From an uncultured Barnesiella sp. (GTDB taxonomy: Bacteria; Bacteroidota; Bacteroidia; Bacteroidales; Barnesiellaceae_A): a stretch of DNA of 34,551 bases. Position numbers and translations under genes: made by a program. The DNA is taken from positions 1 to 34,551 of the forward strand of contig CAJGDT010000001.1 in the NCBI GenBank assembly GCA_904502265.1, in the 5' to 3' direction. The notes below the pieces were generated by a model. It was not told the DNA's origin, made no database searches, and saw nothing but the letters and a program-made list of their open reading frames with translations. Positions 4,125 through 33,839 of the stretch are shown here, piece by piece; the stretch's first letter is position 1; each line of letters opens with the position of its first letter.

Positions 4125-4145
4125 TAAGCAGAGCTAATATTACCC

Positions 4146-4182
4146 CGAGTTACACACTTCGCATGTGAAGTTGTGTAACTCG
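4146..4182 (+). other. stable intergenic hairpin between mreB and mreC
   Basis: cgagttacaca / tgtgtaactcg gives 11 bp, plus an inner cttc/gaag 4 bp. No clear T-tract follows. Confidence 0.5.
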
Positions 4183-4210
4183 TTGCGGTAAAATAAAGAA
4201 CGACTACTCG

Positions 4211-5056
4211 ATGCGCAATCTTATAGACTTTCTTATCAAACATCACGCTTGGATATTTTTTATATTCTACGTAGTGTTGAGTTGTACATTGCTTTTTTCG
4301 TCAAATCCTTACCAGCGAAGCGTATTTTTCGGCTCGTCAAATAGAGTCGTATCGCAAGTGTACGAAATGACCGATGCGGTATCGGGCTACTTCGGGCTTC
4401 GTAAAGCCAATGAGGAGTTGTTGATGCAAAATGGTGAGTTGGCTATGGAAAACTTGCAGTTGCGCCGTCAATTGCAACGATACAGCTATGCGGCCGCTGC
4501 CGATTCGCTTGCACAAAGCGACCCCATGTTGCAACAGTATGACTTTGTTTTGGCTCGAGTTATCAATAATAGCGTGAGCCATCTGGAGAATTATATAACG
4601 CTCGATAAAGGTCGTGCCGATGGAGTGGAACCCGAAATGGCCGTGGTGGACCATCGTGGTATTGTGGGTATTGTCAATGTTGTTAATGAGCATAGTTCGG
4701 TAGCAATATCGGTGCTCAATACCAAATTGCATGTGAGTTGCAAGGTGAAAGGAACCGATTGTTTCGGATCGTTGGTGTGGGATGGTCGCAGTGCCGCCTA
4801 TGCTGTGCTTGAGGAGATGCCTCGCCACGTTGAGTTTGTACCAGGTGATACGATTGTTACAAGTGGTTTCTCGGCAGTATTTCCCGATGGCGTAATGGTG
4901 GGCACAATACATGACTATGCCAAGCAGAAGGATGACAATTTCTATGCTATGCAAGTCAAACTTTCAACTGACTTTACCCAGCTGGGTGTAGTACGTGTTA
5001 TTCGCAATCACACACAAGACCAACAGCAATTGTTGGAGAAGGAGGCTCGTAAATGA
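4211..5056 (+). CDS. mreC: rod shape-determining protein MreC
   Basis: 281 aa with an N-terminal TM, a coiled-coil (NEELLMQNGELAMENLQLRRQLQ) and a beta-rich C-terminal domain. It lies between mreB and mreD. Confidence 0.9.
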   Translation: MRNLIDFLIKHHAWIFFIFYVVLSCTLLFSSNPYQRSVFFGSSNRVVSQVYEMTDAVSGYFGLRKANEELLMQNGELAMENLQLRRQLQRYSYAAAADSLAQSDPMLQQYDFVLARVINNSVSHLENYITLDKGRADGVEPEMAVVDHRGIVGIVNVVNEHSSVAISVLNTKLHVSCKVKGTDCFGSLVWDGRSAAYAVLEEMPRHVEFVPGDTIVTSGFSAVFPDGVMVGTIHDYAKQKDDNFYAMQVKLSTDFTQLGVVRVIRNHTQDQQQLLEKEARK

Positions 5057-5571
5057 ATATTAATCTGTTGCGCGAAATAGGTATAGCGCTGATATTTGTA
5101 TTGTTGCAGGTATTGGTATTCAATCAGATACACCTCTTTGGTGTGGCTGTTCCTTTGGTGTTTATATATGTTATTTTTCGCATGCCGTTGTCTCTGTCTA
5201 CAGCGTGGTTGCTTACAGCCTCGTTTTTCTTGGGGTTGGTTGTAGACATTTTCAGTAATACGCCCGGCATGAATGCATTGGCTTGTACAATATTTGCCTT
5301 TTTGCGTCGACCTGGTTTATCGCTATACCTTCCCCATGGTAGCGATTACGTGGCCGAAGTACCATCGATACGAGGCTTTGGTATGTGGCTTTATGTGCGT
5401 TATTCGCTAACACTTTCATTGCTTTATTGTGTATTGTTGTTCTCAATAGAGTCGCTCTCGTTGTTCGACTTTCCCTATCTGCTCATGCGTATAGTGAGTA
5501 GCACACTGCTTACGTTTGTACTTATTCTTTGTATTGATAGCTTGAGTCAAGGTCGTGAGAAAAGATTATAA
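5053..5571 (+). CDS. mreD: rod shape-determining protein MreD
   Basis: 172-aa polytopic membrane protein. It has an ATGA overlap with the mreC stop and the conserved operon position. Confidence 0.85.
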   Translation: MNINLLREIGIALIFVLLQVLVFNQIHLFGVAVPLVFIYVIFRMPLSLSTAWLLTASFFLGLVVDIFSNTPGMNALACTIFAFLRRPGLSLYLPHGSDYVAEVPSIRGFGMWLYVRYSLTLSLLYCVLLFSIESLSLFDFPYLLMRIVSSTLLTFVLILCIDSLSQGREKRL

Positions 5572-7417
5572 TCTTGAAAAGAGAAAGTATGTTATTGCTA
5601 CAGCCGTTGTTGCGATTGTGGTAATCTATATTGTGCGCCTATTCTCGTTGCAAGTAGGTGATAATGACTATAAACGATTTGCCGATAGTAATGCATTTCA
5701 GCGAAAAGTGCTTTATCCGTCGCGTGGCTTTGTGTATGACCGCAATGGCGAGCTGTTGGTTTATAATCAGCCGGCCTATGATGTGATGATGATACCGCGC
5801 GAGATGCGTTCGCTCGATACGCTTGATTTTTGTAATACGTTGGGTATCGATCTTGAGCAGTTCAATCGTTATATTGCTGATATGAAGGATCGTCGCAAGA
5901 ATCCCGGCTACTCAACTTATACACCACAGGTTTTCATGACGCAACTTTCGGCTCGCGATTATGGTCGACTGCAGGAAAAGTTGTATCGTTACCCCGGTGT
6001 GTATATCCAAAACCGTGTGCTTCGTGAGTATAGTCGTCCTATTGCGGCCAATGTATTGGGTAACATTCGCGAGGTATCACCGTCGGATATAGAGCGCGAC
6101 GATTACTATCGTCGAGGTGACTACACTGGCGACCTGGGTGTGGAGAAGTCGTTTGAGGATGTATTGCGTGGAGTAAAAGGCGAGGAGATACTTTTGCGAG
6201 ATGCTCATGGACGCATCAAGGGTAAGTATGAAGATGGTAAATACGATGTTCAGCCTATATCGGGCCGTAATATAACGCTGTCGATAGATGCCGATTTGCA
6301 GGCTTATGGCGAGAAACTGATGCAAGGCAAGACGGGTGCGATTGTGGCTATAGAACCCTCGACAGGCGAGATATTGGCGCTTGTGTCGAGTCCTACCTAC
6401 GACCCCTCTATCCTGGTGGGTCGTGAACGTGGAAAAAATTATGCGCGCCTTACTCGTGATCCGGGCAATCCCCTTTACGACCGTGCTATTATGGCGGTTT
6501 ATCCTCCGGGTTCAACATTTAAGCCTACTCAGGGACTTATCTTCCTTGAGGAGGGTATAATCACGCCCAATACCAATTATCCCTGTACCGGTGGTTTTGT
6601 TGTAGGAGGTTTGCGAGTAGGTTGTCACGCGCATGCCGCACCCCTGCCGCTGATACCTTCGTTGGCCACATCGTGCAATGCATATTACTGTTACGGATTG
6701 CGCTCGATGCTCGATAACCGCAGCCTTTATGAGAGTACATCCGAGGCTTTCGAGATATGGAAGAACCACTTGGTGTCGATGGGCTATGGTTACAAATTGG
6801 GTATTGACCTTCCCGGTGAGAAGCGTGGTTTCTTGCCTAATAGTGCCTATTACGACAAGTTCTATGGTAAGAATCGATGGAAGGCTCTCACCATTATATC
6901 TATTGCGATAGGTCAGGGTGAGATATTGGCTACCCCATTGCAAATAGCCAACCTCGCTGCTACGGTGGCTAATCGGGGTTATTTCTACACGCCTCACGTT
7001 GTGAAGGCTATACAAGATAGTGTAATTGATACGACTTATACTGTACGTCGCTATCCTTCGATCGATGCCAATCATTATGATGCTATTGTAGAGGGTATGC
7101 GTATGGCTGTTACCGATGGAACCTGTCGCACGGCCAATCTTAAAGATATAGAGGTGTGTGGAAAGACCGGTACGGCGCAAAATCCCCATGGTCGCGACCA
7201 CTCGGCATTTATGGGATTTGCTCCGATGAATAATCCTCAAATAGCCATAGCCGTATATGTCGAAAATGCCGGATTTGGTGCAACCTATGGTGTTCCTATT
7301 GGTAGCTTGATGATGGAGTACTACCTCAAGGGTGAGATAACCGACCCGGCTCGCAAAGATCTTGAACAAAGAATGTTTAACTCGAAAGTTGTAGGTAATA
7401 GTGGCAAGAAACGTTGA
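5555..7417 (+). CDS. mrdA: penicillin-binding protein 2 (elongasome transpeptidase)
   Basis: 620 aa with an N-terminal TM and transpeptidase motifs STFK (PPGSTFKP) and KTGTA. The GTG start overlaps the mreD end. Confidence 0.93.
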   Translation: MRKDYNLEKRKYVIATAVVAIVVIYIVRLFSLQVGDNDYKRFADSNAFQRKVLYPSRGFVYDRNGELLVYNQPAYDVMMIPREMRSLDTLDFCNTLGIDLEQFNRYIADMKDRRKNPGYSTYTPQVFMTQLSARDYGRLQEKLYRYPGVYIQNRVLREYSRPIAANVLGNIREVSPSDIERDDYYRRGDYTGDLGVEKSFEDVLRGVKGEEILLRDAHGRIKGKYEDGKYDVQPISGRNITLSIDADLQAYGEKLMQGKTGAIVAIEPSTGEILALVSSPTYDPSILVGRERGKNYARLTRDPGNPLYDRAIMAVYPPGSTFKPTQGLIFLEEGIITPNTNYPCTGGFVVGGLRVGCHAHAAPLPLIPSLATSCNAYYCYGLRSMLDNRSLYESTSEAFEIWKNHLVSMGYGYKLGIDLPGEKRGFLPNSAYYDKFYGKNRWKALTIISIAIGQGEILATPLQIANLAATVANRGYFYTPHVVKAIQDSVIDTTYTVRRYPSIDANHYDAIVEGMRMAVTDGTCRTANLKDIEVCGKTGTAQNPHGRDHSAFMGFAPMNNPQIAIAVYVENAGFGATYGVPIGSLMMEYYLKGEITDPARKDLEQRMFNSKVVGNSGKKR

Positions 7418-8849
7418 TGTGTGGAAATCGGTAGACAAGTTTACAATATTTCTGTATGTTGTACTAGTCTTTTTTGGTTGGGTAAGTATCTACGCAGCCA
7501 GTTACGACTTTGACCAGGCAAGCATATTCGATTTTGCTGAGCGTTCGGGCAAGCAGCTTGTGTGGATTGGCTTGTCATTTGTGTTGGCGTCTGTTATTAT
7601 GCTCATAGATTCACGTATGTTCGAGACATATGCCTATCTTATATACATAGCATTTATTTTGTTATTGCTCTTTACCTTGGTTGTGGCCGATGAGGTGAAG
7701 GGTTCCCGATCGTGGCTGACGATAACTTCGTCGGTGCGTCTACAGCCGGCCGAGTTTGCCAAGTTTGCTACGGCTCTGGCAGTGGCCAAGATGTTCAATG
7801 GATATAACTTCAGGTTTACCAGTCTGCCTAATTTTTTCAAAATAGTAGGCTTGGTGATATTGCCAATGTTGATTATTGTGATGCAGAAGGAAACAGGATC
7901 GGCCTTGGTATATCTGTCATTTGTGTTAATGATGTACCGTGAAGGTATGACCGGTTTGGTACTATTTGGCGGTATTTGTGCTATCGTTTACTTTATATTG
8001 GGTATAAAGTTTAGTGCCGACATGTGGATGGGAGCGCCTTTAGGAGAAAGTATAGTGCTTATACTCATCTGTATTGTGTTAGTAGGTATCATACGCTATT
8101 TTGCCGAGAATAAATTGGTGGCGCGCAATCTCTCTATATTTTATATTCTTGTAGCGATTGTGGTCTCGATACTCATGCTATGTGATGTGGCAGTACCTAT
8201 GCTTTATGTGCTACTGGGTGTAGTGCTTTTGTCGGTGCTCTATCTTGTGGCGATTTATTTCTCGCACTTCTCGTCTAAGTTATTGGTTGCTGCGGCTGTA
8301 ACCATTGTATCGGTGGCGTTTCTCTTTTCGTGCAACTTTGTTTTCAGTAAGTTGCAACCTCACCAACGCACTCGCATAGAGGTGTTGTTGGGTATGAAAG
8401 AGGACTTGCGCGATGCAGGATACAATGTCAACCAGTCCAAAATTGCCATTGGTTCGGGCGGTTTCTGGGGAAAGGGGTTCTTGAATGGTACGCAGACCAA
8501 GCTCAAGTATGTGCCGGAGCAGGATACCGACTTTATTTTCTGTACTATTGGCGAGGAGGAAGGTTTCTGGGGCTCTTGTCTGGTGTTGGTGCTATTTACG
8601 GCTCTGATATTGCGTATCATGACTATTGCAGAGCGACAGCCACGACCCTTTGGCCGAGTTTATGCCTATTGTGTGCTGGGAATATTCTTCTTCCACCTGT
8701 TTATTAATATAGGTATGGTTATCGGATTGTGCCCGGTGATTGGTATTCCGTTGCCGTTCTTTAGTTATGGAGGCTCGTCGTTGTGGGGCTTTACCATATT
8801 GCTGTTTATACTTCTGCGTATCGATGCCTCGCGCAGTGAGCACTTCTGA
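7401..8849 (+). CDS. rodA: SEDS-family peptidoglycan polymerase RodA
   Basis: 482-aa polytopic membrane protein of the FtsW/RodA family (VPEQDTDFIF, GIPLPFFSYGGSS). The start codon is non-ATG (GTG), so its position is approximate. Confidence 0.9.
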   Translation: MARNVDVWKSVDKFTIFLYVVLVFFGWVSIYAASYDFDQASIFDFAERSGKQLVWIGLSFVLASVIMLIDSRMFETYAYLIYIAFILLLLFTLVVADEVKGSRSWLTITSSVRLQPAEFAKFATALAVAKMFNGYNFRFTSLPNFFKIVGLVILPMLIIVMQKETGSALVYLSFVLMMYREGMTGLVLFGGICAIVYFILGIKFSADMWMGAPLGESIVLILICIVLVGIIRYFAENKLVARNLSIFYILVAIVVSILMLCDVAVPMLYVLLGVVLLSVLYLVAIYFSHFSSKLLVAAAVTIVSVAFLFSCNFVFSKLQPHQRTRIEVLLGMKEDLRDAGYNVNQSKIAIGSGGFWGKGFLNGTQTKLKYVPEQDTDFIFCTIGEEEGFWGSCLVLVLFTALILRIMTIAERQPRPFGRVYAYCVLGIFFFHLFINIGMVIGLCPVIGIPLPFFSYGGSSLWGFTILLFILLRIDASRSEHF

Positions 8850-14099: not shown

Positions 14100-15656
14100 A
14101 TGAAGGTAAAAAAGATGTTATTAATGTTGGTAATTTTGATTACCATGCAGGGGTATGGCATGTCGCATAAGGCGACTGATGATGTATATGCTCCTATTAC
14201 TAATCTGCCAACGATATTTATTGATACCGAGAATGGCGCAGCAATAACTAGCAAAGATGATTATGTCAATGCGGTAATTACCGTGAGGGGTGCAGCCAAT
14301 GAGGAGGATAACATAACCGAAGTTCCTGCCGAGATAAAGGGTAGAGGAAACTCGACTTGGAAAATGGCCAAGAAGCCCTATCGACTCAAGTTTGAGGACA
14401 AAATCAACTTTTTGGGAAATGAAGCCAAAGAGAAGAACTGGGTGCTCTTGGCTAACTATGCCGACAAGACATTGTTGCGCAATGCCTTGGCTTTCGAGAC
14501 CGCGCGTGCTTTGTTCAACTTTGAGTTTACTCCGTCTGTTACGTTTGTTGATGTGGTGCTCAATGGCAAGAATATAGGTAGCTATCTGCTCACCGACCAA
14601 GTAGAGGTAAAGAAGAGCCGAGTGTCGGTTATGGAGCAACCGACAACTGTGGTACAAGGCAACCCCGAAATTACCGGAGGATACCTTATTGAGGTGGATG
14701 GATTTGCCGAAAAAGAAATATCTTGGTTCAAGACGGCAAAAGATATGAAGGTAACTATCAAGTATCCCAAGGATGATGAAATCAATGCGTCGCAGAAGAA
14801 CTATATTCAAAACTATACTCAGCGCATGGAGAATGCACTCTTCTCGGAACGGTTTGATGACCCTGAAAAGGGTTGGCGTCATTATATTGATGAAGACTCT
14901 TGGGTCAATTGGTATATTGCTTGCGAGTTGTTTGGCAACTCCGACTCGTGGTGGAGTACCTATATGTATAAGGAGCGTGGCGAAAAGTTTAAGTATGGCC
15001 CTATATGGGATTTCGATATTGCTTTCAACAACGACTATCGCATAGGAAATGCTACCGAAAAGTTTATGCGCTCGGCAGGTTGTGAGCCGAAGACTTGGAT
15101 AAAACGCTGGTGGGAGGATGAGACTTTGCAAAAACAGGTAAAGAAGCGTTGGGTAGAAATGGGCGCCGAAAATATTAAGGAGTTTATGCTCAGTTATATT
15201 GATAGTATGGAGGTCGTATTGGATGAATCGCAGAAAAATAACTACGAGATATGGCCTACACTCGACACTCGTGTGCACTATGAATATTCGGTGCGTGGAT
15301 CGTATGAGGCCGAGGTACAGGCGTTGAGAGAATATGTTGATGCACGTATTAGATTTCTTGATCTGATATGGCGAGTACGTGCCGATATTGACGAGAAGGT
15401 TGTAGATGGAAGTATAATCGAAATGCCATACAACCATATTGAACAAGGCGAAAATATCAGACTGACACGTGTGCAAGGAATGGCAAATGTTGCCATAACC
15501 TTGATTGATGGTAAGGTGGTGTACTCGGCACAACATGTGGCCGATGCCAACAATAATGTTGTAATAGATAGTAGTTCGCTACAGGCCGGATTGTATATTG
15601 TAGTCGCGAGTGATGCTCGGAGCAATGTGTTCAGAGGTCGCTTGCTGGTAGAATAG
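14100..15656 (+). CDS. CotH kinase family protein with probable T9SS C-terminal sorting domain
   Basis: 518 aa with a signal peptide and CotH-like blocks (KKPYRLKF, WVLLANYADKTLLRNALAFE, GGYLIEVD, PIWDFDIAFNN). The C-terminal ~70 aa is a beta-rich tail (ITLIDGKVVYS...LQAGLYIVVAS...RGRLLVE) resembling a type A T9SS CTD. Confidence 0.8.
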   Translation: MKVKKMLLMLVILITMQGYGMSHKATDDVYAPITNLPTIFIDTENGAAITSKDDYVNAVITVRGAANEEDNITEVPAEIKGRGNSTWKMAKKPYRLKFEDKINFLGNEAKEKNWVLLANYADKTLLRNALAFETARALFNFEFTPSVTFVDVVLNGKNIGSYLLTDQVEVKKSRVSVMEQPTTVVQGNPEITGGYLIEVDGFAEKEISWFKTAKDMKVTIKYPKDDEINASQKNYIQNYTQRMENALFSERFDDPEKGWRHYIDEDSWVNWYIACELFGNSDSWWSTYMYKERGEKFKYGPIWDFDIAFNNDYRIGNATEKFMRSAGCEPKTWIKRWWEDETLQKQVKKRWVEMGAENIKEFMLSYIDSMEVVLDESQKNNYEIWPTLDTRVHYEYSVRGSYEAEVQALREYVDARIRFLDLIWRVRADIDEKVVDGSIIEMPYNHIEQGENIRLTRVQGMANVAITLIDGKVVYSAQHVADANNNVVIDSSSLQAGLYIVVASDARSNVFRGRLLVE

Positions 15657-18170: not shown

Positions 18171-18614
18171 TTACCCTTTTCGGAATCTTGATGCCATCAA
18201 AATGCCTGTTGTTGACAATATTGTTATTGCCATGATAATGAGATGGTATGCCCACGAAGGTGTTGATTTGCTCTCTATCTCATTGGGTGGATGTCGGTAT
18301 GGAATGGAATCGATGGTGTGTATTTCTTGCATTTGTATAGTTATGCTGTCTTGTCGAGGTTCGATGGTGAGAGTGTGGTGTAGAGTACCGTTTGAGATAG
18401 TGGCCATGCTGTGTGCTCCATTGCCTTGCAGCAGACTTGTGGTGTCGGAGGTGCGATTGCTGTGTGATTCGCCTTGGGTAACTATCTCTATTATAGTGTC
18501 TCTCAGGGTTATGTACTCTTTGTGACTCCTATCGGTGGGAATGTATATGGTCTTGGTACATGCTATTGTGCCGGCGAGGCCAAGGATTGTAACAATAGTG
18601 ATTAGTTGTTTCAT
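18171..18614 (-). CDS. lipoprotein with C-terminal transmembrane anchor (unimolecular-spanin-like topology)
   Basis: The start is trimmed to MKQLITIVTILGLAGTIAC (lipobox-like Cys), giving 147 aa. The middle is Thr/Ser/His/Ile-rich, with a C-terminal TM WAYHLIIMAITILSTTGILMA followed by SRFRKG. The ATG overlaps the endolysin TGA (ATGA). Confidence 0.6.
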   Translation of the reverse strand: MKQLITIVTILGLAGTIACTKTIYIPTDRSHKEYITLRDTIIEIVTQGESHSNRTSDTTSLLQGNGAHSMATISNGTLHHTLTIEPRQDSITIQMQEIHTIDSIPYRHPPNEIESKSTPSWAYHLIIMAITILSTTGILMASRFRKG

Positions 18615-19018
18615 GCGTGTATCACCTCCCCTCTGTTGTTGCCATTGCGGCAGTAGCTTACATGTATCCACGCCGGACCTTGGCTATTGCCGCGTTCCCA
18701 TATCAATTGATCGAAGGGCATATTGAGTAAAATGTCAAACAATTTTCGATTTACTTGTGGCGACTCGGTGCATATATCTGCAGCTTCTCCTGTAAGATGT
18801 TGACTATTAGGTACTCCGCCTACACATTTGTTTAGTGTTTTGCTGCGATATCCGCTATTCACGCGAATGGGTTTTCGCAATGTTTCGCGAGCCGGGTCGA
18901 GTATATGCACCGCAAGTGCTGTAAGGTTTTCTGTAACTTCGGGGGTCGGAGTGTTGTCTATATGTAGTTGTCGAGCCAGAGCACTGTCTGTAAGTTCGGC
19001 TATTGTAAAATATTTCAT
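18611..19018 (-). CDS. peptidase M15 family (D-Ala-D-Ala carboxypeptidase-like) phage-type endolysin
   Basis: The start is trimmed to MKYFTIAEL, giving 135 aa. The pattern SGYRS...NKCVGGVPNSQHLTGEAADI...WIHVSY matches the Peptidase_M15_3 zinc-site pattern (H...D...H). It has ATGA overlaps on both sides. Confidence 0.82.
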   Translation of the reverse strand: MKYFTIAELTDSALARQLHIDNTPTPEVTENLTALAVHILDPARETLRKPIRVNSGYRSKTLNKCVGGVPNSQHLTGEAADICTESPQVNRKLFDILLNMPFDQLIWERGNSQGPAWIHVSYCRNGNNRGEVIHA

Positions 19019-19248
19019 ACGCCACCTCCGTTCTTGTCGTCTGTTGTGTGTGTGCGTACTCGGTAGCTGTAGTCTACCCCGAATAAAGCTCCGGCAAAGG
19101 TTACAACTTCGCCAAAAGCAACCAATACACTCTGATGAATTTCGCCCTCGGGATGTGTCCAAAATCCCGAAAATATAAGTACTATACCTGCCAGGCACAT
19201 GACGCATGCTGTGGTGAGGTGGACTGCCAATTTATTTATATTTGTCAT
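19015..19248 (-). CDS. holin-like small membrane protein (2 TM, charged C-terminus)
   Basis: The start is trimmed to MTNINKLAVHL, giving 77 aa. It has two hydrophobic spans (LTTACVMCLAGIVLIFSGFW and SVLVAFGEVVTFAGALFGV), then RVRTHTTDDKNGGGV. It sits immediately upstream of, and is translationally coupled to, the endolysin. Confidence 0.6.
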   Translation of the reverse strand: MTNINKLAVHLTTACVMCLAGIVLIFSGFWTHPEGEIHQSVLVAFGEVVTFAGALFGVDYSYRVRTHTTDDKNGGGV

Positions 19249-19374
19249 ACTCTTATTTTTTACTGCAAAGATGCAATGCAATAAGAGCTGACGAGTGCGA
19301 TAGAGAGAATTTGGGAAATAATATTTTGTTGTAGAATTTTTATAAAAACACTTGCATATATATTTATATGTGTG

Positions 19375-19382
19375 TAAATTTG
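19375..19382 (+). promoter_or_regulatory. Bacteroidota -7 promoter box TAAATTTG upstream of the GrpE-like gene
   Basis: Matches TAnnTTTG and ends 32 nt before the ATG at 19414. Confidence 0.5.
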
Positions 19383-19413
19383 CCATAATAATAACCTTTT
19401 ATTTCTATTTACC

Positions 19414-20220
19414 ATGGGATTATTTGGAAACAATAATGAGAGCGAATTGAGAAGCTTTGAGCAAACTATAGAACGTTTGAAATCGGAGTATGCTTCTCTT
19501 GAGGAAGAAAATAGAGCAAAGGATATCGAGATAGAACGCTTGAAAAAAGTGATAGAAGGTATGGGTGCTCAAGAAGAAAAAGCTTTCCCGACACCTGAGG
19601 TACCTACAGAGGAAGCCCCTGTGAATGTGCCGAGTGTCGATTATACTCCGGCATTAGAGGCACTCAATGCTTCGCTTAACGAGCTCAAGGAGCAAGCCAT
19701 TGCACAAAAGGCCTTGATGGAGGAGCATAAAGTATTGCTCGGATATCGCGACCGACAAGATGACAACATGCGTGCCATGCACAAGGAGTTGGAGCAGTAT
19801 AAGAGTGACTTCTTTGTGAAGATAACTCAACCCTACTTGAAAGCACTGCTTGACTTGCATAGCCGCTTCAATAGCACTTATACACACTTTGATCAACTCG
19901 ACAATTCGGAATGTAACTGGGAGGAGTTGTATGGCAATCTTATGAAGGAGTTTAAGAGCGCCATTATGGCCTTGAGTGACCGTGCATACAACGACTTTGG
20001 TATAGAATACTACGAGCCCGAGATAGGAGAGGAGTTTAATCGCAAGTTGCATCAACAACTGCAAGGCGATTCGGTAGAAACAACCAATCCCGAACTAAAC
20101 ACCAAGATAGCCCAAGTGGTGTGTGGTGGTTTTATCAATATCGACACCGAGAAGGTAGTGCGTTATGCACGTGTGAAAGTGTATAAGTATACCGAGGCAA
20201 CCCCGACAACAGAATCTTAA
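19414..20220 (+). CDS. GrpE-like nucleotide exchange factor (divergent, accessory)
   Basis: 268 aa with an N-terminal coiled-coil (RSFEQTIERLKSEYASLEEENRAKDIEIERLKK) and a Pro/Glu linker. The C-terminal part aligns by eye to the GrpE four-helix bundle and beta domain (...FGIEYYEPEIGEEFNRKLHQQL...VVCGGFINIDTEKVVRYARVKVYK versus GrpE G..FDP..H.A...GY....V.R.A.V.V.K). Confidence 0.7.
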   Translation: MGLFGNNNESELRSFEQTIERLKSEYASLEEENRAKDIEIERLKKVIEGMGAQEEKAFPTPEVPTEEAPVNVPSVDYTPALEALNASLNELKEQAIAQKALMEEHKVLLGYRDRQDDNMRAMHKELEQYKSDFFVKITQPYLKALLDLHSRFNSTYTHFDQLDNSECNWEELYGNLMKEFKSAIMALSDRAYNDFGIEYYEPEIGEEFNRKLHQQLQGDSVETTNPELNTKIAQVVCGGFINIDTEKVVRYARVKVYKYTEATPTTES

Positions 20221-20248
20221 GAGTAAACAAACAAAAATATATAGAACT

Positions 20249-21841
20249 ATGGCAAACGATAAAAGTAGAGCCGTATATGGCATAGACTTGGGTACAACAT
20301 TTAGTTGTATTGCACAAGTAGACCGATATGATCAAGCAGTGGTACTTCGCAACTTCGAAGGCGATGCAACTACTCCTTCGGTAGTGTACATCGAGTCGGA
20401 GAGTAACATGATTGTGGGTAAAGAGGCTAAGAACCAATTGGCTGTGGAGCCCGAAAAGACTGTAGCGTTTATCAAACGCGAGATAGGTAATGATGAGGCT
20501 TTCGACAAGAGCAAGAATACAACACCTATGCACCTCGACCCTGTTGAGATCTCGGCGCTTATTCTTAAGAAACTTGTACAAGATGCCAATAACTTGGGCG
20601 AAAATCCCGAGCCTATCACCGACGTTGTTATTACTTGTCCCGCATACTTTGGTAACAAAGAGCGCTTGCAAACCAAACAAGCCGGTATCAGTGCCGGTCT
20701 CAATGTGTTGGCTATTATCAATGAGCCTACTGCAGCCGCTATCTCGTATGGATTGAAGGTCGACGAGCGTCGCACTATTCTTGTATATGACCTCGGTGGT
20801 GGTACATTCGACGTTACCATTATTGCCGTTAACGGTGGTGCTATCAAGGTTATTGCTACCGGTGGTGACCACCACTTGGGTGGTGTCGACTGGGATACCG
20901 AGTTGGCTAAATATGTGCTCAACACATTCAACTCTCAAAATGGCACTTCTTATGAGTTCGATTCACTCTCGCCCAATGCTCGTTATGAGTTGTTGCTCAA
21001 TGCCGAGAACTGGAAGAAGAACCTTACTGCCAAGCAAAAGGTTAAGATTAACTTCTCGTATGAAGGTAAATCGGTTAACTTTGAACTTCCTCGTGAGACA
21101 TTTAATGCCATTACCGAGGATCGCTTGAATGAGACTATCGATGCAACACGCAAGATTATCGAGCTTGCTGAGGAGAAGGGCTATAAGAAAATCGACGAGA
21201 TTATCCTTGTAGGTGGTAGTAGTAAGATGCCTCAAATCAAGGATCGCGTAGAGGCTGAGTTTGGCTTGCCTACTCACATTACCGACCCCGACGAGTGTGT
21301 GGCTAAGGGTGCTGCTATCTTTGCCATGAACGAGGCTTATGATGCTGCCTTGAAGAAATCGGAGGAAGAGGGTACTAAGGCTCCCGAACCTCTCATGACC
21401 AAGCGTACTCGCGTAGTTAATGTAACAAGTAAGACCTACGGCCTTGGTCTTATCGATAACCAAGTGGGTAACATGATTTTTGCCAACACAACATTGCCCG
21501 TATCGCGCACTCGTGTGTTTGAGACAGTACGCGACGGTCAAACCGGTGTAACATTGCCCATCTACGAGAGTGACTTTACCGATGAGGAGAAAGACCAAAC
21601 TGTTGAAGACCGCTTCTGTAACTTGGCTACCGAGGATATATCGGAATTGAAGTTGACAGGCAACCACCCCAAAGGAACCGAGATTAAGGTTACATTCAGC
21701 ATTAGCGAAGAGGGTATCCTCAGTGTTAACGCTACTCGCGAAAGCGATGTAATAGACTTCCAATTGAAGGTGGCAGGTGTGAAGAGTGAAGATGAGTTGA
21801 GAAAGTCTCAAAACTTCATTGCTAACGCCACTGTTGAATAA
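20249..21841 (+). CDS. Hsp70 family protein, lidless (HscC-like length), accessory paralog
   Basis: 530 aa with the full actin-like NBD (GIDLGTTFS, DLGGGTFDV, LVGGSSKMPQI) and an SBD-beta region. It ends without the alpha-helical lid or an EEVD-type tail. Confidence 0.92.
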   Translation: MANDKSRAVYGIDLGTTFSCIAQVDRYDQAVVLRNFEGDATTPSVVYIESESNMIVGKEAKNQLAVEPEKTVAFIKREIGNDEAFDKSKNTTPMHLDPVEISALILKKLVQDANNLGENPEPITDVVITCPAYFGNKERLQTKQAGISAGLNVLAIINEPTAAAISYGLKVDERRTILVYDLGGGTFDVTIIAVNGGAIKVIATGGDHHLGGVDWDTELAKYVLNTFNSQNGTSYEFDSLSPNARYELLLNAENWKKNLTAKQKVKINFSYEGKSVNFELPRETFNAITEDRLNETIDATRKIIELAEEKGYKKIDEIILVGGSSKMPQIKDRVEAEFGLPTHITDPDECVAKGAAIFAMNEAYDAALKKSEEEGTKAPEPLMTKRTRVVNVTSKTYGLGLIDNQVGNMIFANTTLPVSRTRVFETVRDGQTGVTLPIYESDFTDEEKDQTVEDRFCNLATEDISELKLTGNHPKGTEIKVTFSISEEGILSVNATRESDVIDFQLKVAGVKSEDELRKSQNFIANATVE

Positions 21842-21867
21842 GAAATATTATACCCTACCCATAGAGG

Positions 21868-21887
21868 TTGTGTCACATGTGACACAA
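21868..21887. promoter_or_regulatory. perfect 20-bp palindrome TTGTGTCACATGTGACACAA in the Hsp70 / 840-aa gene spacer
   Basis: Self-complementary over 21868-21887. It could be an operator or an intra-operon RNA hairpin. Confidence 0.5.
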
Positions 21888-21909
21888 GCTTGTGTTTGAA
21901 TATATATAG

Positions 21910-24432
21910 ATGGATAAGACACTTCTAAAGCAGAAAGTTGCCGAGTGGGAGAAGGCATGCAGTTTCTTTGCCACCCCCGACATTGTTAAGCAGCTCGATA
22001 AAGACGAGAACGAGGCAATTGTATTTCTGAGCAACTTCTGGCGTGACAAAGAGTTTGACAAGGAGGCATGCCAAAAGCGTATCGACCTACTCAAGCATTG
22101 CGATAAATTGCACTCGAACAATCGTGAGATTATCGAAAAGAGCAAGACTCTGCGAGGTATTGCTCAGACATTTTATACCAAGGATTTCGCATCGTTTGAC
22201 GAGTTTCGCAAAGAGTTGGGATGGACGCCGGGAACAAAGAAAGCTCCTATACCCGAGCCTAAGAAGGCGCCTGTGCCTACTCCCAAGCCCGACTCTACGC
22301 CGCAACATGACGAGGCTCTGATAGCTACTAATGTACAGAAGTGGTCGCGTTCATTGCAGTTCCTTAAGAGTGAGGAGATCACGCCACAGCTCGACACCGC
22401 CGAGATTACGGCTATTGAGGTGCTGAGCGATATGTGGCGACGTCCTTCATTTCAGCCTGATATGAAGGAGGAGGCTGCCGATATGGTAAAGGTGTTGATA
22501 AGCTCGCACAAGTTGCACTCGAACAATCGCGAGATTATTGAACATAGCAAGAACTTATGTGCGGTGGCGCGTAAGATGTATGATGATAAGAAGAACTTCG
22601 ATATCTACAAGAAAGCCCTTTCGGAGTATTATAAAAATAATAAACCTCCTCGTCGCGAGCAGCCTGTTCCTGAGAAGAAAAAGAAGCCGATACCTCAATC
22701 ACCTCGTAGAGATAGCGAGTTGATTATACGCGATGTGCTCTTTGCCGATACAACCTACAACAATGAGATTATCAAGGACTTTGGCAAGGTGCTCTTTACC
22801 AATACGCAGTATATAGTGCCTCGCCTGTCAGTGTCGAGCGAGTACTATGGTACTGAGACGATAGAGGTAATCTTGAAATATCCCAATGGCGAAACTTGTA
22901 GCTATGATACCGAAGTGACATTCAGCGGTAAGGGCGATTATACATTGTCGGGTTGGGGTAGCAAGAGTGGAACATCGTATGCATCATACGGTTTCGTTGA
23001 GTACACCTTCAAGTGCAAGGGTAAGAAGTTGTGGCAAGGTCATGTTACCATAGGTCGCGACGCTAACAGCCCACGCTTGCCTGAGATATCGACTGTTAAG
23101 TTTGGTGCAGTTGATTACGACGGTAACATCAAGGTGAACTTTGGCTCGCCCATTCCTACCGGTATACCCTACTTGAAGCCTCGCATTGTGGTGTCGAACA
23201 ACTTCCGTGGTGCGGTTACTATCAATATAACCTTTGAGTATAAGGATAAGGATGCCGATCGTACATCGAGCGAAATCAGTATCCAAGGCCCCGGCGAATA
23301 CGACTTGACGGGTTGGGGTCGTCGTGATTGTACCTATTGGAAAGAGAATGAGACTGTGAAGGTTACCTTTAGTTGTGAGGGTAAAGTGCTCTATACGACT
23401 AATGTGAAAATTGGTTCGGGCGGTGGCTGGAGTCCCAAGAAGACTTATAATACACCGCATCGACGCAGTAGCTCGGGCGACTCATTGTGGGCACGTTTTG
23501 ATGATAAGATTCGCTCTATAGGTGAGAGGCTGGAGGATAGTAATGAGATATTGACATCAATAATTTCTGTTATTCTCTTTTTGGGCTTGGCAGCCGGTGT
23601 AGTATTTGAATGGATCGATGAAGGATTTTGGGCTGCCCTTATTACAGGTGCAGTAGGCTTTGTAGTGTTATCGTTTGTTATCGCTATAATGAGCTTTATT
23701 ATGCCAATAATAGTCTTCGTGCTGCAATTGGTGTTTAGGAATGCTTGGACATTCCTTATCGCGCTTATTCTTCTCTTTGGCCCATCGATAGCTGCTCTTG
23801 TGGGTGGCGTGGCGAGTGCTATATTTGCCCGTGATGATAGTGACGAGCAGGTTATTGAGCAAGTAGTAGCAATGCCTACATCAACTTACTATTGCACAGC
23901 GCAATCGGGTGTGATAGTGCGTCAAAGTCCATCGAAAACGGCTACACAATTGGGTGGATTGCAGTATAACGAAGAGGTGGAAGTATATGAAATAGAAAAC
24001 GGATATGCCCGCATCGACTACTATGGTCAAGAGGCTTGGGTCAGCAGCCAATATATTACCATGAGTGAGGGCGAGGCTTTCTTGATTGAAAATGCTAAAC
24101 GTAAAGATGTGAAAATCCTTGCAAGTGGATTACAATATGAGGTAGTGAAGAAGGGAAAAGGCAAGAAACCCTATGCGCATAGTGATATAAAGTGTACCTA
24201 TACCTGCTCGTTGCCCGACGGAACGGTCTTGGATAGCGCTACCGAGCCTATGGAGTTTAACCTGGGTGGTGTGATAAAAGGCTTTGCCGAAGGTGTTATG
24301 CAGATGAAGGAAGGTGCTCGATACATCCTGTATGTGCCGGCCAATTTGGGCTATGGTAATAATGCCGTCGGCAATATACCACCTCACGCTACTGTCATAT
24401 ACGATGTGACGCTTGTAGAGATAGTAGACTGA
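21910..24432 (+). CDS. multidomain membrane protein: 2x J-like helical modules, 2x beta-rich repeats, TM bundle, SH3b, FKBP-type PPIase
   Basis: 840 aa with internal duplications (aa ~25-100 versus ~160-245; aa ~270-382 versus ~390-502). A hydrophobic block spans aa ~547-640. There is an SH3b-like segment (YYCTAQSGVIVRQSPS...GYARIDYYGQEAWVSSQYI) and a C-terminal Mip/FklB-type FKBP domain (LASGLQYEVVKKGKG...FNLGGVIKGFAEGVMQMKEGARYILYVPANLGYG...VIYDVTLVEI). Confidence 0.85.
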   Translation: MDKTLLKQKVAEWEKACSFFATPDIVKQLDKDENEAIVFLSNFWRDKEFDKEACQKRIDLLKHCDKLHSNNREIIEKSKTLRGIAQTFYTKDFASFDEFRKELGWTPGTKKAPIPEPKKAPVPTPKPDSTPQHDEALIATNVQKWSRSLQFLKSEEITPQLDTAEITAIEVLSDMWRRPSFQPDMKEEAADMVKVLISSHKLHSNNREIIEHSKNLCAVARKMYDDKKNFDIYKKALSEYYKNNKPPRREQPVPEKKKKPIPQSPRRDSELIIRDVLFADTTYNNEIIKDFGKVLFTNTQYIVPRLSVSSEYYGTETIEVILKYPNGETCSYDTEVTFSGKGDYTLSGWGSKSGTSYASYGFVEYTFKCKGKKLWQGHVTIGRDANSPRLPEISTVKFGAVDYDGNIKVNFGSPIPTGIPYLKPRIVVSNNFRGAVTINITFEYKDKDADRTSSEISIQGPGEYDLTGWGRRDCTYWKENETVKVTFSCEGKVLYTTNVKIGSGGGWSPKKTYNTPHRRSSSGDSLWARFDDKIRSIGERLEDSNEILTSIISVILFLGLAAGVVFEWIDEGFWAALITGAVGFVVLSFVIAIMSFIMPIIVFVLQLVFRNAWTFLIALILLFGPSIAALVGGVASAIFARDDSDEQVIEQVVAMPTSTYYCTAQSGVIVRQSPSKTATQLGGLQYNEEVEVYEIENGYARIDYYGQEAWVSSQYITMSEGEAFLIENAKRKDVKILASGLQYEVVKKGKGKKPYAHSDIKCTYTCSLPDGTVLDSATEPMEFNLGGVIKGFAEGVMQMKEGARYILYVPANLGYGNNAVGNIPPHATVIYDVTLVEIVD

Positions 24433-24460
24433 TAGTCGTTGCGTAGTGCTCCGGATACAG

Positions 24461-24496
24461 ACAAGGCAGAGTAACCATTTGGTTGCTCTGCCTTGT
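24461..24496. terminator. bidirectional terminator hairpin
   Basis: acaaggcagagtaacc-attt-ggttgctctgccttgt forms a 16-bp stem (one G:U) between convergent stops at 24432 and 24517. Confidence 0.8.
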
Positions 24497-24516
24497 TTAT
24501 AGTGGATGTTATATCT

Positions 24517-31100: not shown

Positions 31101-33839
31101 TTATTTTTTCACAAACTTCATGCTTTGGCTGTTGTCACCATCTTGGATGTTGAGGATGTACATGCCGGTAGGAAGGTCGCGTACTTCGACACAATTTCCT
31201 TGTGCTTGCTTAACTACTGCACCCGATAGGTTGATTACCGAGAGTGTACCTTGAGCATTGGTGTACACATAGTCGCATGCGGGGTTGGGATATATGGTGT
31301 ACTCAAACTTGTCGTTCTCGACATTATCAACACCTGTTACCTCGAAGTTGGTGTAGATAAAACAGCTGTTGGCAGGTACCGATTGGGTGTAGTTGGCACT
31401 GCTTACTTGGATTGTTTCGTCAGTAAGCAAGTTGGTCCAAGTACCTACTTTGGGGAAGTTGATGGTGTAGTTACCGTCTTTCTCGGTGAGGTTTATGGCT
31501 ACTACCACACTCTTAGTGCCATCGGCGCTGGTGAGTGTTACGAAACGGCCGTTGTACCAGTCGCCTCTGCTCAACTTGTAGCTCAATGAGGCATTGGGTG
31601 TAAACAACTCGGCGTGGTAGTTGCGCAAGGTGTTCAACTTGGCGTAGGCCATCCACAAGCGGTGACGCTCGGGGTCTTGGGCATATTCCCATTTCACGGG
31701 TTTTTCGGCAGTGCGGTCGCCGTTGTAGTTGATACTGTAGTCATAGCCAAGCTCACCAAATTGCCATATCATCTTAGGACCGGGGATGGTGAGGAATTGA
31801 GCTGCATTGGCAATGGCTTGGTCCATGCGAGCAGCGAGGTCGTTTTTCACATCCAAGTGGCCATAGGTTACGGCCTTGTATGTTGTGCGCTCCTCGTCGT
31901 GGCTCTCCATGTAACCCACCAAACTATTTTTAGGCATGCTGCTACCGTTGGCATATACGCCTGTTACGTCGCATACATAACCCATAGCTCCTTCGCAGTA
32001 CTCGTGGTTCATGTTGCGCCATAGCATCATACCGGCCTCGGCCAATGCTTTTTCTTCACCACCGTCGCAGAAGTGCTCAAGAATCATGCAAGCGTTGGGG
32101 TTTACCTCTTTGATTGCATTGTAGTATGTCTTGAGGATGTCGATACGTGATTGGTCGTAGTTTGAGGCGGTGTTGTCGTTGCAAGGACGATTGGTGAAGC
32201 CCTTGGTAAGGTCAAAGCGGAAACCGTCAATCTTGTACTCGGTGAGGAGGTATTGGAGGTTGCGCTTGATATACTCTTTCACACCACTTACTGTGTGGTT
32301 GAAGTCGTGGAACACGCTGAAGGGGTGAGGAGCATCTACGTTGAACCAGGGGTTGTTCGATGCAGTTTTGTTGTTCTTGGCATCCCACCACAACTTACAG
32401 TAGGGGAAGTTACCTGTAGCGTGGTTGTACACTACGTCGAAGAATACGGCGATACCCAACTTGTGACACTCGTCGATAAACTTGCGGTAGTCATCGTCGG
32501 TACCGTAGGCCTTATCCAATGCAAAGAAATATGCAGGGTTGTAACCCCAACTGAGGTTGCCGTCGAACTCTTGTACGGGCATCAACTCGATGGCATTTAC
32601 ACCAAGGCTTTGCAAGTAGGGGAGTTTCTCCATTGCAGCTTTGAGTGATTTTTCGGCTGTAAAGTCGCGGAGAAGCAACTCGTAGATAACCAAGTTGTCG
32701 CGGTTCTTGACAGTAAAGTCGGTTACTTCCCATTGATAGTCCGATCCGGTAGTCTTGAATACGGTAGCGGGTTGTTCCCAAGCCTCTTCGGGGAATTCGC
32801 GTAAGCCGGGATATATGCTCTCGTCAATCCATTTGTCATTCCAGGGGTCGAGGATTTTGGTTGAGTAAGGGTCGGCAAAGCGAATAGCATCGCCATTTTG
32901 AGGTATTACGTGATATTGGAAGGCGTATTCTACACCGGGCTCAAGGCCATCGATTGTAATCCACCAGCACTTGTTGGTATTGTCGCGCTTCATCATGAAG
33001 TCGTTGCTCAACTGCCAGTTGCTATTATCGCCCACCCAGAAGATGTATTGGCTGTATTTTCCTTGTTTATCGCTATCGAAGAATACAAATGTTACTGTAT
33101 TTTCATCGATGATGTTGATACCCTCCTTTGTGCCGGCAGGGCGAGTTTCCTCTACTACAGGTCCGCATACAGTAAGGCGAGCGCTCACTTCGTGCGACTC
33201 TTCGCCTATGGTAGCTTTCGCAGTGAATATGTAATCGCCTTTTGTGGCAAAGTTAATATTTTGTGTGAGCTTATTTGTAGCGTTGGCTTTGTACTCTTGT
33301 GTACCATTGGGACCGGTCACTGTCAGTACCAAGTCGGCATCTTTAGTTGCTGTTGCCGAGATGTCTATGCTTGAACCTTCAGTGGCAATACCCGATGCGG
33401 GAATACCTTCGATTGTGGCATATAGTGCGCCATCCTCGCAAGGTATCATGATGTCGGGGCGTGTTTGTTTCGAGCCATCGGCATTACGTATTACCACACC
33501 GATGGTGTTTATCTCAATGTCGGCTTTGAAATATTCGCGGATAGTGGGGCCGAGAGTTATTGACCAAGTGTTGTCGCTCTCTTTTACCATTTTGTATTTG
33601 GCGTCGTTGTCACACCATTGTTTGGGTCCATTGTGCCATGTTTTTGTTGCGTCAACTACACCAATGTGTACGTAAAGTTCGTCGCTTGCACCGAAAATCT
33701 TGTTTGTGTCAATCCAAGTTATTTTGCCCTCTTTGTCGGCATTCAGCGGACTGGGGTTGGTCATGTATGTACCTGTTTGTGCCCATGCAGCTACAGTAGT
33801 GAGTAGTGTTGCGATAAAAAGAAAAAATCTCTTTTGCAT
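31101..33839 (-). CDS. GH13 alpha-amylase family glycoside hydrolase with N-terminal accessory domains and T9SS C-terminal sorting domain
   Basis: 912 aa with a signal peptide and GH13 conserved regions (FDVVYNH, DGFRFDLTKG, EHF, YMESHDE). The C-terminus YTIYPNP...LPTGMYILNIQDGDNSQSMKFVKK is a typical type A T9SS CTD. Confidence 0.9.
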   Translation of the reverse strand: MQKRFFLFIATLLTTVAAWAQTGTYMTNPSPLNADKEGKITWIDTNKIFGASDELYVHIGVVDATKTWHNGPKQWCDNDAKYKMVKESDNTWSITLGPTIREYFKADIEINTIGVVIRNADGSKQTRPDIMIPCEDGALYATIEGIPASGIATEGSSIDISATATKDADLVLTVTGPNGTQEYKANATNKLTQNINFATKGDYIFTAKATIGEESHEVSARLTVCGPVVEETRPAGTKEGINIIDENTVTFVFFDSDKQGKYSQYIFWVGDNSNWQLSNDFMMKRDNTNKCWWITIDGLEPGVEYAFQYHVIPQNGDAIRFADPYSTKILDPWNDKWIDESIYPGLREFPEEAWEQPATVFKTTGSDYQWEVTDFTVKNRDNLVIYELLLRDFTAEKSLKAAMEKLPYLQSLGVNAIELMPVQEFDGNLSWGYNPAYFFALDKAYGTDDDYRKFIDECHKLGIAVFFDVVYNHATGNFPYCKLWWDAKNNKTASNNPWFNVDAPHPFSVFHDFNHTVSGVKEYIKRNLQYLLTEYKIDGFRFDLTKGFTNRPCNDNTASNYDQSRIDILKTYYNAIKEVNPNACMILEHFCDGGEEKALAEAGMMLWRNMNHEYCEGAMGYVCDVTGVYANGSSMPKNSLVGYMESHDEERTTYKAVTYGHLDVKNDLAARMDQAIANAAQFLTIPGPKMIWQFGELGYDYSINYNGDRTAEKPVKWEYAQDPERHRLWMAYAKLNTLRNYHAELFTPNASLSYKLSRGDWYNGRFVTLTSADGTKSVVVAINLTEKDGNYTINFPKVGTWTNLLTDETIQVSSANYTQSVPANSCFIYTNFEVTGVDNVENDKFEYTIYPNPACDYVYTNAQGTLSVINLSGAVVKQAQGNCVEVRDLPTGMYILNIQDGDNSQSMKFVKK

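Follow-up and report, generated by a model that had tools for sequence, protein, structure and literature searches.

A lidless Hsp70 encoded with a GrpE-family protein and a membrane partner in Barnesiella, a candidate chaperone system independent of J domains

We analysed a 34,551-nt stretch of DNA from an uncultured Barnesiella sp. (contig CAJGDT010000001.1, positions 1 to 34,551; here named the window, that is, the whole stretch of DNA that was analysed), in which three adjacent genes encode a GrpE-family protein (gene 1), an Hsp70 without the helical lid (gene 2) and a large membrane protein (gene 3) that begins with two copies of a helical domain, here named the helical module. Gene 2 belongs to a family that has lost the residues contacted by J domains, and we propose that it may form, with gene 1, a dedicated chaperone pair for which the helical module could act as docking partner at the inner membrane. 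A preliminary description of the sequence had reported three co-directional genes with spacers of 28 and 68 nt, and the open reading frames (ORFs) were found at exactly those coordinates, with spacers at 20221-20248 (genes 1 and 2, 28 nt) and 21842-21909 (genes 2 and 3, 68 nt). The elements of the operon are as follows.

19375-19382, + strand: promoter-like box TAAATTTG, matching the Bacteroidota -7 consensus TAnnTTTG, with the first ATG 31 nt downstream
19414-20220, + strand: gene 1, GrpE-family protein, ORF of 268 aa
20249-21841, + strand: gene 2, lidless Hsp70, ORF of 530 aa
21864-21891, + strand: stem-loop followed by a T-run in the spacer between genes 2 and 3, conserved; putative partial terminator or attenuator
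21910-24432, + strand: gene 3, membrane partner protein, ORF of 840 aa
24456-24501, + strand: terminal hairpin, a 22-nt inverted repeat with arms 24456-24477 and 24480-24501

The lidless Hsp70 and its GrpE-family neighbour

Against the Pfam HSP70 profile, gene 2 scores 349 bits over positions 1-501 of 599, and it aligns to residues 4-515 of E. coli DnaK, with 36-39% identity to DnaK and 32-33% to HscC. The protein is made up of a nucleotide-binding domain (NBD), a modified linker and the substrate-binding domain's beta-subdomain (SBD-beta), and stops after helix A, at the DnaK-equivalent of about 526. No helices B to E were present in the alignment with DnaK, HscA and HscC, and the C-terminal tail is lacking as well, so that the earlier reading of the middle gene as an NBD and an SBD-beta ending at 530 aa without a lid is confirmed. 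We aligned 122 members of the family with E. coli DnaK, HscA and HscC (residue numbers below are those of DnaK). Because 120 of the 122 members end at the same place, DnaK-equivalent 524-526, just past helix A, the absence of the lid is a trait of the family and not a truncation.

All 122 members, gaps aside, have the residues of the ATPase site (D8, K70, E171, D194, T199 and D201) unchanged; P143, P419 and L484 are likewise conserved throughout, and nearly every member keeps F426 and Q433. Since both the catalytic and the SBD-beta core residues are conserved, this Hsp70 should hydrolyse ATP and bind peptides.

Contacts with J domains present a different picture. In Hsp70s, R167 and Q378 bind the Asp of the J-domain HPD motif, E206, D211, E217 and D477 bind its basic helix II, stimulation by the J domain needs the VLLLD linker with D393, and the pairs K414-D326 and D481-R167 clamp the NBD to the SBD (PMC8215388). 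In the lidless family, R167 is replaced by A, G or S (122/122, with no Arg in any member), Q378 by Y or F, E206 by N, V or T, and E217 by K (115/122); the D211 loop is deleted, D393 has become N (118/122) and the linker reads T[RT]VVN in place of VLLLD, while the clamp pair K414-D326 has turned into Ala (121/122) and Ile (114/122). HscA and HscC keep R167, Q378, E217, D326 and D393. Canonical J domains are thus unlikely to act on this Hsp70, to judge from the family alignment, and the suggestion that the locus encodes a dedicated, probably orthogonal Hsp70 machine is supported at the level of single residues. We also observed that the change at K414-D326 replaces an ionic by a hydrophobic contact, seemingly as a coordinated switch, and that D148, part of the path that carries the signal to K70, has become T or N in the family.

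K55 (kept in 121/122) and E267 (122/122) form a pair that bridges the nucleotide cleft and is absent in HscA and HscC; its retention fits a requirement for an exchange factor. Three deletions mark the NBD of the family: 6 aa at DnaK 287-292, 4 aa at the D211 loop and 17 aa in lobe I, the first of them lying in the IIB loop and overlapping the GrpE-signature region.

Gene 2 stays far below the equivalog cut-offs for DnaK (334.3 bits against 648 for NF001413; 327.8 against 822.55 for TIGR02350) and for HscA (317 bits against 708.55), and no isc genes lie nearby; its relatives are annotated by NCBI as 'Hsp70 family protein'. In a four-point quartet test, which may suffer from long-branch attraction, the family groups with HscC in 391 of 500 bootstraps. 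A peptide-pattern scan that took one genome from each of 185,579 species detected the family in 11 species genomes, a figure that is an undercount, as the scan used a single peptide pattern taken from the GrpE-like alignment.

Gene 1 scores 39.4 bits against the Pfam GrpE family PF01025 (cut-off 25.8), with residues 82-258 covering model positions 7-165 of 165. This GrpE domain is preceded by an extra, leucine-zipper-like N-terminal coiled coil (residues ~8-55) and an acidic, Pro-containing linker. The family alignment contains a conserved beta-domain motif, EP.vGd.FnPk.HqA, and the top PDB match of the family profile is the GrpE of T. thermophilus (3a6m), in which the beta-domain motif 'P..G..F.P..H.A' is aligned. 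Likeness to GrpE, which had been noticed in the preliminary description, therefore stands both on a Pfam score above the gathering value and on the best PDB profile match; relatives of gene 1 also carry precomputed PF01025 matches and the NCBI label 'nucleotide exchange factor GrpE'. None of the NCBIfam GrpE models reached its cut-off, the best scoring 13.9 bits against 266 for the housekeeping equivalog. Adjacency to the Hsp70 gene in 22 of 23 loci (see below), together with the kept K55-E267 pair, suggests that gene 1 encodes a GrpE-family nucleotide exchange factor for the adjacent Hsp70.

The membrane partner and its helical module

Gene 3 is built, from the N-terminus, of two copies of the helical module of ~105 aa each, two sandwiches similar to fibronectin type III (FnIII) domains, three transmembrane (TM) helices, an SH3b domain and an FKBP domain; the helices are those of AlphaFold2 (AF2) models, and the module copies were matched by hidden Markov model (HMM).

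21910-22227, + strand: helical module copy 1 (residues 1-106), HMM match; proposed Hsp70-docking element
22306-22629, + strand: helical module copy 2 (residues 133-240), HMM match with E 2.2e-33
22726-23412, + strand: two tandem beta-sandwiches (residues 273-382 and 393-501), FnIII/Ig-like, predicted cytoplasmic
23542-23826, + strand: membrane block of three long AF2 helices (residues 545-571, 573-610 and 612-639), with a juxtamembrane helix at 526-543
23905-24417, + strand: SH3b (residues 666-716) and FKBP_N/FKBP_C isomerase (719-836), found by Pfam, predicted periplasmic

Pfam and NCBIfam recognise nothing in the first 650 residues. At the C-terminus, Pfam reports SH3_3 (48.7 bits), FKBP_N (28.9, cut-off 22) and FKBP_C (70.7, cut-off 21.1), all of which pass; the NCBIfam FKBP models of FklB/FkpA and BamJ type also match, all under their cut-offs. 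In the AF2 model of residues 245-660 the beta-sandwiches have a pLDDT mostly above 90, and Foldseek pairs them with the tandem FnIII domains of RbmA at 7e-8, and also with transglutaminase C-terminal barrels. The AF2 helices and the bias of loop charges (DEG outside, RN inside, and RDDSDEQ outside after the last helix) predict a topology with the N-terminus in and the C-terminus out. SH3b and FKBP would then be periplasmic, in keeping with the TonB_C, thioredoxin and FKBP domains of relatives, which are of a typically periplasmic kind. Gene 3 had been described as a large membrane protein with chaperone-related domains; the membrane part holds, and the only such domain is the FKBP, predicted to be periplasmic. 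In 9 related genomes the corresponding place is taken by orthologues of 835-990 aa.

The two module copies are 38-39% identical to each other. An AF2 model based on 61 homologues gives a bundle of 5-6 helices with a pLDDT of 95.1 and a pTM of 0.86. No Pfam or NCBIfam family matches the module, and Foldseek against the PDB returned nothing significant (best E 0.97, best TM-score 0.46). No match was found in BFVD, a collection of viral structures, and a viral origin was accordingly rejected. The preliminary description had spoken of 'J-like modules' in gene 3; the repeats are real (residues 1-106 and 133-240), but they are not J domains. Indeed, PF00226 has no match in gene 3 even at E <= 10, hhalign of the module against the J domain of E. 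coli DnaJ gives a probability of 0.3%, and no J-domain fold is among the 89 weak Foldseek matches in the PDB. The idea that the module supplies the missing lid in trans was not supported either, as hhalign against DnaK 505-638 likewise gives a probability of 0.3%; the sole lid structure among the Foldseek matches (3lof) comes at rank 15 with E 4.8.

Conserved positions of the module are W13, L29, E33, A36, L40, W44, H68-x-N-N, K79, R82, Y89 and F99. The polar ones are E33 (97%), H68 (94%) with the two Asn of H68-x-N-N, a motif in the loop that joins helices 4 and 5, K79 and R82. When 1.84 billion representative proteins were searched exhaustively with HMMER, the module turned up in only 136 clusters, in proteins that are nameless or labelled 'hypothetical protein' in databases; a word-index search with the module alignment had given only 4 fragments. 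In most proteins the module starts at residue 1, 29 proteins have two copies, and a TM segment follows downstream in 87 of 98 full-length proteins. Its fusion partners are diverse, most of them domains typical of the periplasm or the cell wall: SH3_3 (29/85), MORN (15), TonB_C (6), Sel1 (4) and FKBP (3), with further fusions to DUF805, CD225, AhpC/thioredoxin and protein kinase domains. The linker after the module is rich in Pro (17% vs 5%) and net basic; HscC-type Hsp70s are known to favour positively charged peptides (PMC8215388).

Gene order, regulation and genomic setting

Adjacent and co-directional genes for the GrpE-like protein, the Hsp70 and the module protein, in that order, were found in 22 of 23 loci, taken from ruminant-gut Bacteroidaceae-like metagenome-assembled genomes (MAGs), Barnesiella, Rikenellaceae, Prevotella, Marinifilum and metagenomes, which bears out the co-occurrence of the triad expected in the preliminary description. 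No gene with a DnaJ domain (PF00226) appears in the Pfam lists of 12 other loci or among the window ORFs scanned. In the lineage of the window (at least 9 species) the surroundings of the operon are fixed, with the order ribH-TPR...Mrp-pgi, and the architecture of the partner is stable. Between these relatives, the Hsp70 is 96-98% identical, as conserved as pgi, compared with 80-85% for ribH and 71-84% for the GrpE-like protein and the partner; the difference between Hsp70 and ribH indicates strong purifying selection on the ATPase.

In Prevotella-type loci the lidless Hsp70 gene is present as two paralogues in tandem, placed between the genes for the GrpE-like and the module protein (L002, 8001-11206; L003, 3334-6531; L018, 6121-9301; L025, 1793-4986). 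Their operons are longer, with unannotated genes (DUF6175 and others), and adjoin either VapE-like primase and helicase genes or a DUF4062 gene with an NPHP3_N STAND-like gene. In Marinifilum (L001, 3076-6576) a Peptidase_M48 (HtpX-like) gene and a gene for a 748-aa AAA ATPase precede the triad on the same strand, a context that hints at a membrane protein quality-control neighbourhood, and the Rikenellaceae loci have ClpB as convergent neighbour. A YkuD L,D-transpeptidase or another SH3_3 protein is encoded directly after the module protein in two further loci (L020, 5985-6521; L023, 8013-9074), adding to the peptidoglycan-related character of the partners.

The spacer between genes 2 and 3 holds the stem-loop at 21864-21891. 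Its stem is kept in 8 of 8 related loci, in spacers that otherwise diverge; as a consensus it forms 13 pairs at -18.7 kcal/mol, with a loop that varies in sequence and length. This hairpin is probably an attenuator that holds the partner below the chaperone in amount, and a partner less abundant than its chaperone is a known pattern for J-proteins (PMC8215388). Downstream of gene 3, the hairpin at 24456-24501 (dG -34.4 kcal/mol, z = -7.9; 0 of 200 shuffles fold equally well) lies between the convergent gene 3 and Mrp/ApbC gene and is the probable bidirectional terminator closing the operon; the terminator first placed at 24461-24496 is thereby recovered as a strong hairpin with the arms given above. 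As for the operon's own TAnnTTTG box, also proposed earlier, TAAATTTG can be read directly at 19375-19382, but the motif itself is weak evidence. The TANNTTTG pattern (TAnnTTTG) occurs 39 times in the window where 27 matches are expected; with so mild an enrichment the argument for TAAATTTG as operon promoter is positional only, suggestive and not decisive. A sigma-70 promoter scan is uninformative for Bacteroidota.

The window consists of ordinary housekeeping DNA of the chromosome, and the operon genes match the rest of it in GC content and codon usage: relative synonymous codon usage (RSCU) of the three genes correlates with that of the other window genes at r 0.65-0.85, inside the range of housekeeping genes here, in agreement with the host-like codon usage noted before. 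Around 10 kb upstream of the Hsp70 operon, a complete rod-shape operon follows purH (3105-8849; mreB, mreC, ORF 5053-5571, PBP2 and rodA; the domain scan covered all of these except ORF 5053-5571). A CotH-kinase-family protein (14100-15656) and a 912-aa alpha-amylase-family protein (31101-33839) both end in a Por_Secre_tail sorting domain of the type IX secretion system (T9SS), consistent with the Bacteroidota origin of the window. Adjoining the operon on the - strand, a divergent trio (18171-19386) encodes a small membrane protein, a Peptidase_M15_3 protein and a protein of ~150 aa with a lipoprotein-like N-terminus, in a layout that resembles a holin-endolysin-spanin lysis cassette. The trio stays in place in 9 related MAG loci, including those in which the downstream Mrp-pgi block has been relocated, and in codon usage it is a poor fit to the window (RSCU r 0.07 and 0.31); ORFs 18611-19207 and 19015-19386 exceed the counterpart genes of relatives, which are of ~135 and ~80 aa.

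Interpretation and rival explanations

Among described systems, HscC with DjlB/DjlC appears to be the nearest functional parallel, and the HSP70-GrpE theme of the GAP1-N2 systems the nearest architectural one and closest published analogue. E. coli HscC is likewise a short, specialised Hsp70 of non-essential type encoded beside its own membrane-anchored partner; the three NBD deletions (GrpE-signature/IIB loop, D211 loop, lobe I) are common in kind, and Sel1 domains occur both in the HscC locus and in some module proteins. The lobe I deletion of HscC (residues 76-101) is, however, longer than the 17 aa missing from the lidless family, and its SBD-beta loop L1,2 insertion (4-8 residues; NRQG in E. 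coli) is absent there. HscC (556 aa; type range 550-580 aa) has a shortened lid with a nine-residue deletion in helix B (PMC8215388), whereas gene 2 has none, and it keeps R167, Q378, E217, D326 and D393, all lost in the lidless family. Moreover, activation of HscC comes from the J domain of DjlC, and HscC is believed to work without GrpE (PMC8215388), while the lidless Hsp70 is paired with a GrpE-family gene and a partner without a J domain.

The GAP1-N2 systems with DO-GTPases (Kaur, Burroughs, Iyer and Aravind 2020, eLife; PMC7159879) resemble the present operon in their HSP70 and GrpE neighbourhood, sometimes with a second HSP70, and in an FNIII-repeat partner that carries an Hsp70 cofactor domain at its terminus, a place taken here by the proposed module. 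They are also membrane-proximal, with SH3 and beta-sandwich domains beyond the TM segment, and include a parallel kinase/PP2C/vWA theme (PMC7159879). These systems, found mainly in actinobacteria and firmicutes, are predictions from comparative genomics and have not been characterised; what defines them is a DO-GTPase together with GAP1 (PMC7159879), neither of which is present in the operon or its flanks here. A true DnaJ domain, or TPRs, belongs to their FNIII protein where the partner has the helical module, and the lidless Hsp70 differs from their Hsp70 theme in having lost the J interface. With DnaK and DjlA the system would share an anchored cofactor that brings the Hsp70 to the inner membrane, as proposed here for the module, and a GrpE-family exchange factor; the K55-E267 cleft pair of canonical DnaK is kept. 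DjlA uses a canonical J domain with DnaK, whereas gene 2 lacks the lid, the tail and the J interface, and gene 1 differs from canonical GrpE in its extra N-terminal coiled coil and in falling short of the GrpE equivalog models.

The reading that we favour, with middling confidence, is that genes 1 and 2 encode a dedicated, J-domain-independent pair of Hsp70 and nucleotide exchange factor, which the module docks or activates at the inner membrane. It is suggested by the strict adjacency of the genes, the N-terminal and cytoplasmic placement of the module, its conserved polar residues and the matching loss of the J interface. The operon would then form a self-contained Hsp70 system at the cytoplasmic face of the inner membrane without any J-domain protein, the helical domain standing in for the J domain as docking and regulatory element. 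E33, the H68-x-N-N loop between helices 4 and 5, K79 and R82 are candidates for the contact surface, and the Pro-rich basic linker could be a segment taken up by the open SBD-beta, which has no lid; a dimer of the GrpE-like protein would reset the ATPase. The partner would span the membrane and display its peptidoglycan-binding SH3b and its FKBP isomerase in the periplasm, domains that are replaced in relatives by TonB_C, thioredoxin/AhpC, Sel1, or MORN with DUF805. Most likely, the ATP cycle would govern the assembly state or conformation of this envelope-spanning protein, or bring chaperone power to membrane or envelope clients, with the hairpin between genes 2 and 3 probably keeping the partner sub-stoichiometric.

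Several points weigh against this reading. Adjacency is no proof that the module binds or activates the Hsp70, and the loss of J contacts does not show that nothing of J type acts on it. In the one exceptional locus (L021, 2949-4865), the module (residues 372-474) lies inside a Ser/Thr protein kinase, with no Hsp70 within 6 kb of the module protein and with vWA, PP2C, LRR, MORN-like and FGE-sulfatase genes as neighbours, and some relatives are found in mobile or defence-like neighbourhoods. The TM topology comes solely from AF2 helices and charge bias and may vary, as some relatives have beta-sandwich repeats on either side of the TM segment. Finally, the module could equally be a dedicated client tag.

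On this last account, gene 3 would be the dedicated client, which Hsp70 and GrpE fold, insert or hold, and the module its recognition tag; IscU, the recognised client of HscA, offers a parallel. Strict one-to-one adjacency would agree with it, as would the position of the module at the extreme N-terminus, first out of the ribosome, the Pro-rich basic linkers, which suit binding by the SBD, and the fact that DnaK assists the biogenesis of membrane-anchored proteins such as DjlC (PMC8215388). We nevertheless regard it as rather improbable. The module and the operon also occur with partners as short as ~200-300 aa that have a single TM segment and lack elaborate domains, and for these a need for special folding help is not obvious; the module is well folded (pLDDT 95) and not an unfolded, degron-like tag; and the conserved hairpin suggests that the partner is scarcer than the chaperone, the pattern expected of a cofactor. 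That genes 1 and 2 are a plain housekeeping DnaK-GrpE pair, followed by an unrelated gene, is very unlikely. Both do belong to the right superfamilies, with fitting NCBI labels and host-like codon usage, but in the NCBIfam equivalog models they stay far under the cut-offs (334 bits for gene 2, where 648 are required, and 13.9 for gene 1, where 266 are), gene 2 lacks the lid, the C-terminal tail, the VLLLD linker and the J-contact residues, no dnaJ lies nearby, and a downstream gene without relation to the pair is hard to square with the strict tie to the module protein. In addition, dnaK is reported in 98.9% of bacterial genomes (PMC11019930), and the single-pattern scan found this family in just 11 species genomes of 185,579.

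A conflict or anti-phage system, with Hsp70/GrpE as an NTP-dependent switch and the module as adaptor to variable membrane sensors or effectors, likewise seems unlikely, although the constant pair followed by a highly variable third gene sharing only the N-terminal adaptor, the FnIII-like repeats of the partner and the two Hsp70 paralogues at some loci would suit it. Some loci also adjoin VapE/helicase genes, DUF4062 with the NPHP3_N STAND-like gene, a Schlafen AlbA_2 gene with a DUF87 HerA-like ATPase, or a methylase, and the Hsp70-less kinase of L021, with its PP2C and vWA neighbours, matches another GAP1-N2 theme (PMC7159879). Set against these is the window lineage, where the fixed housekeeping context (ribH, TPR, Mrp, pgi) is kept across at least 9 species, with a stable partner, an Hsp70 conserved like pgi and host-like codon usage. 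No DO-GTPase or GAP1 gene lies in the operon or its flanks, and the partner here bears SH3b and FKBP, with no recognisable toxic effector. A known defence system was rejected, as PADLOC 2.0 gave no system match for the three proteins; genes 2 and 3 had no match, and gene 1 only a coiled-coil match to LmuB (E 0.0029).

To our knowledge, every characterised Hsp70 (DnaK, HscA, HscC and the eukaryotic ones) is driven by a J-protein and has a helical lid. Reviews recognise three prokaryotic types of Hsp70, and by its sequence features the lidless family appears to fall outside each of them on their defining tests. Literature searches found no description of the triad or of the helical domain, in line with the remark in the preliminary description that the architecture is not a described system. 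Going beyond the favoured reading of a J-domain-independent pair docked by the module, we put forward more tentatively that the module is a new, J-domain-replacing class of Hsp70 co-chaperone and that the system works as an ATP-driven transmembrane actuator or signalling device, an idea suggested by the fact that the module heads single- or multi-pass proteins with SH3b, TonB_C, FKBP or thioredoxin domains at the other end. If true, this would be the first known Hsp70 machine to run without any J-domain protein, and cytoplasmic ATP hydrolysis would be coupled to the conformation or assembly of a periplasmic protein that contacts the cell wall.

In conclusion, if the module docks or activates the chaperone, it would represent a second way of controlling the Hsp70 cycle, and the system would be an orthogonal chaperone module of possible use in engineering. 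The operon also points to a connection, so far unexplored, between the energy of a cytoplasmic chaperone and proteins that span the envelope in the abundant gut Bacteroidales. Even on a conservative reading, it reveals a new Hsp70 subfamily and a new domain family worth naming.

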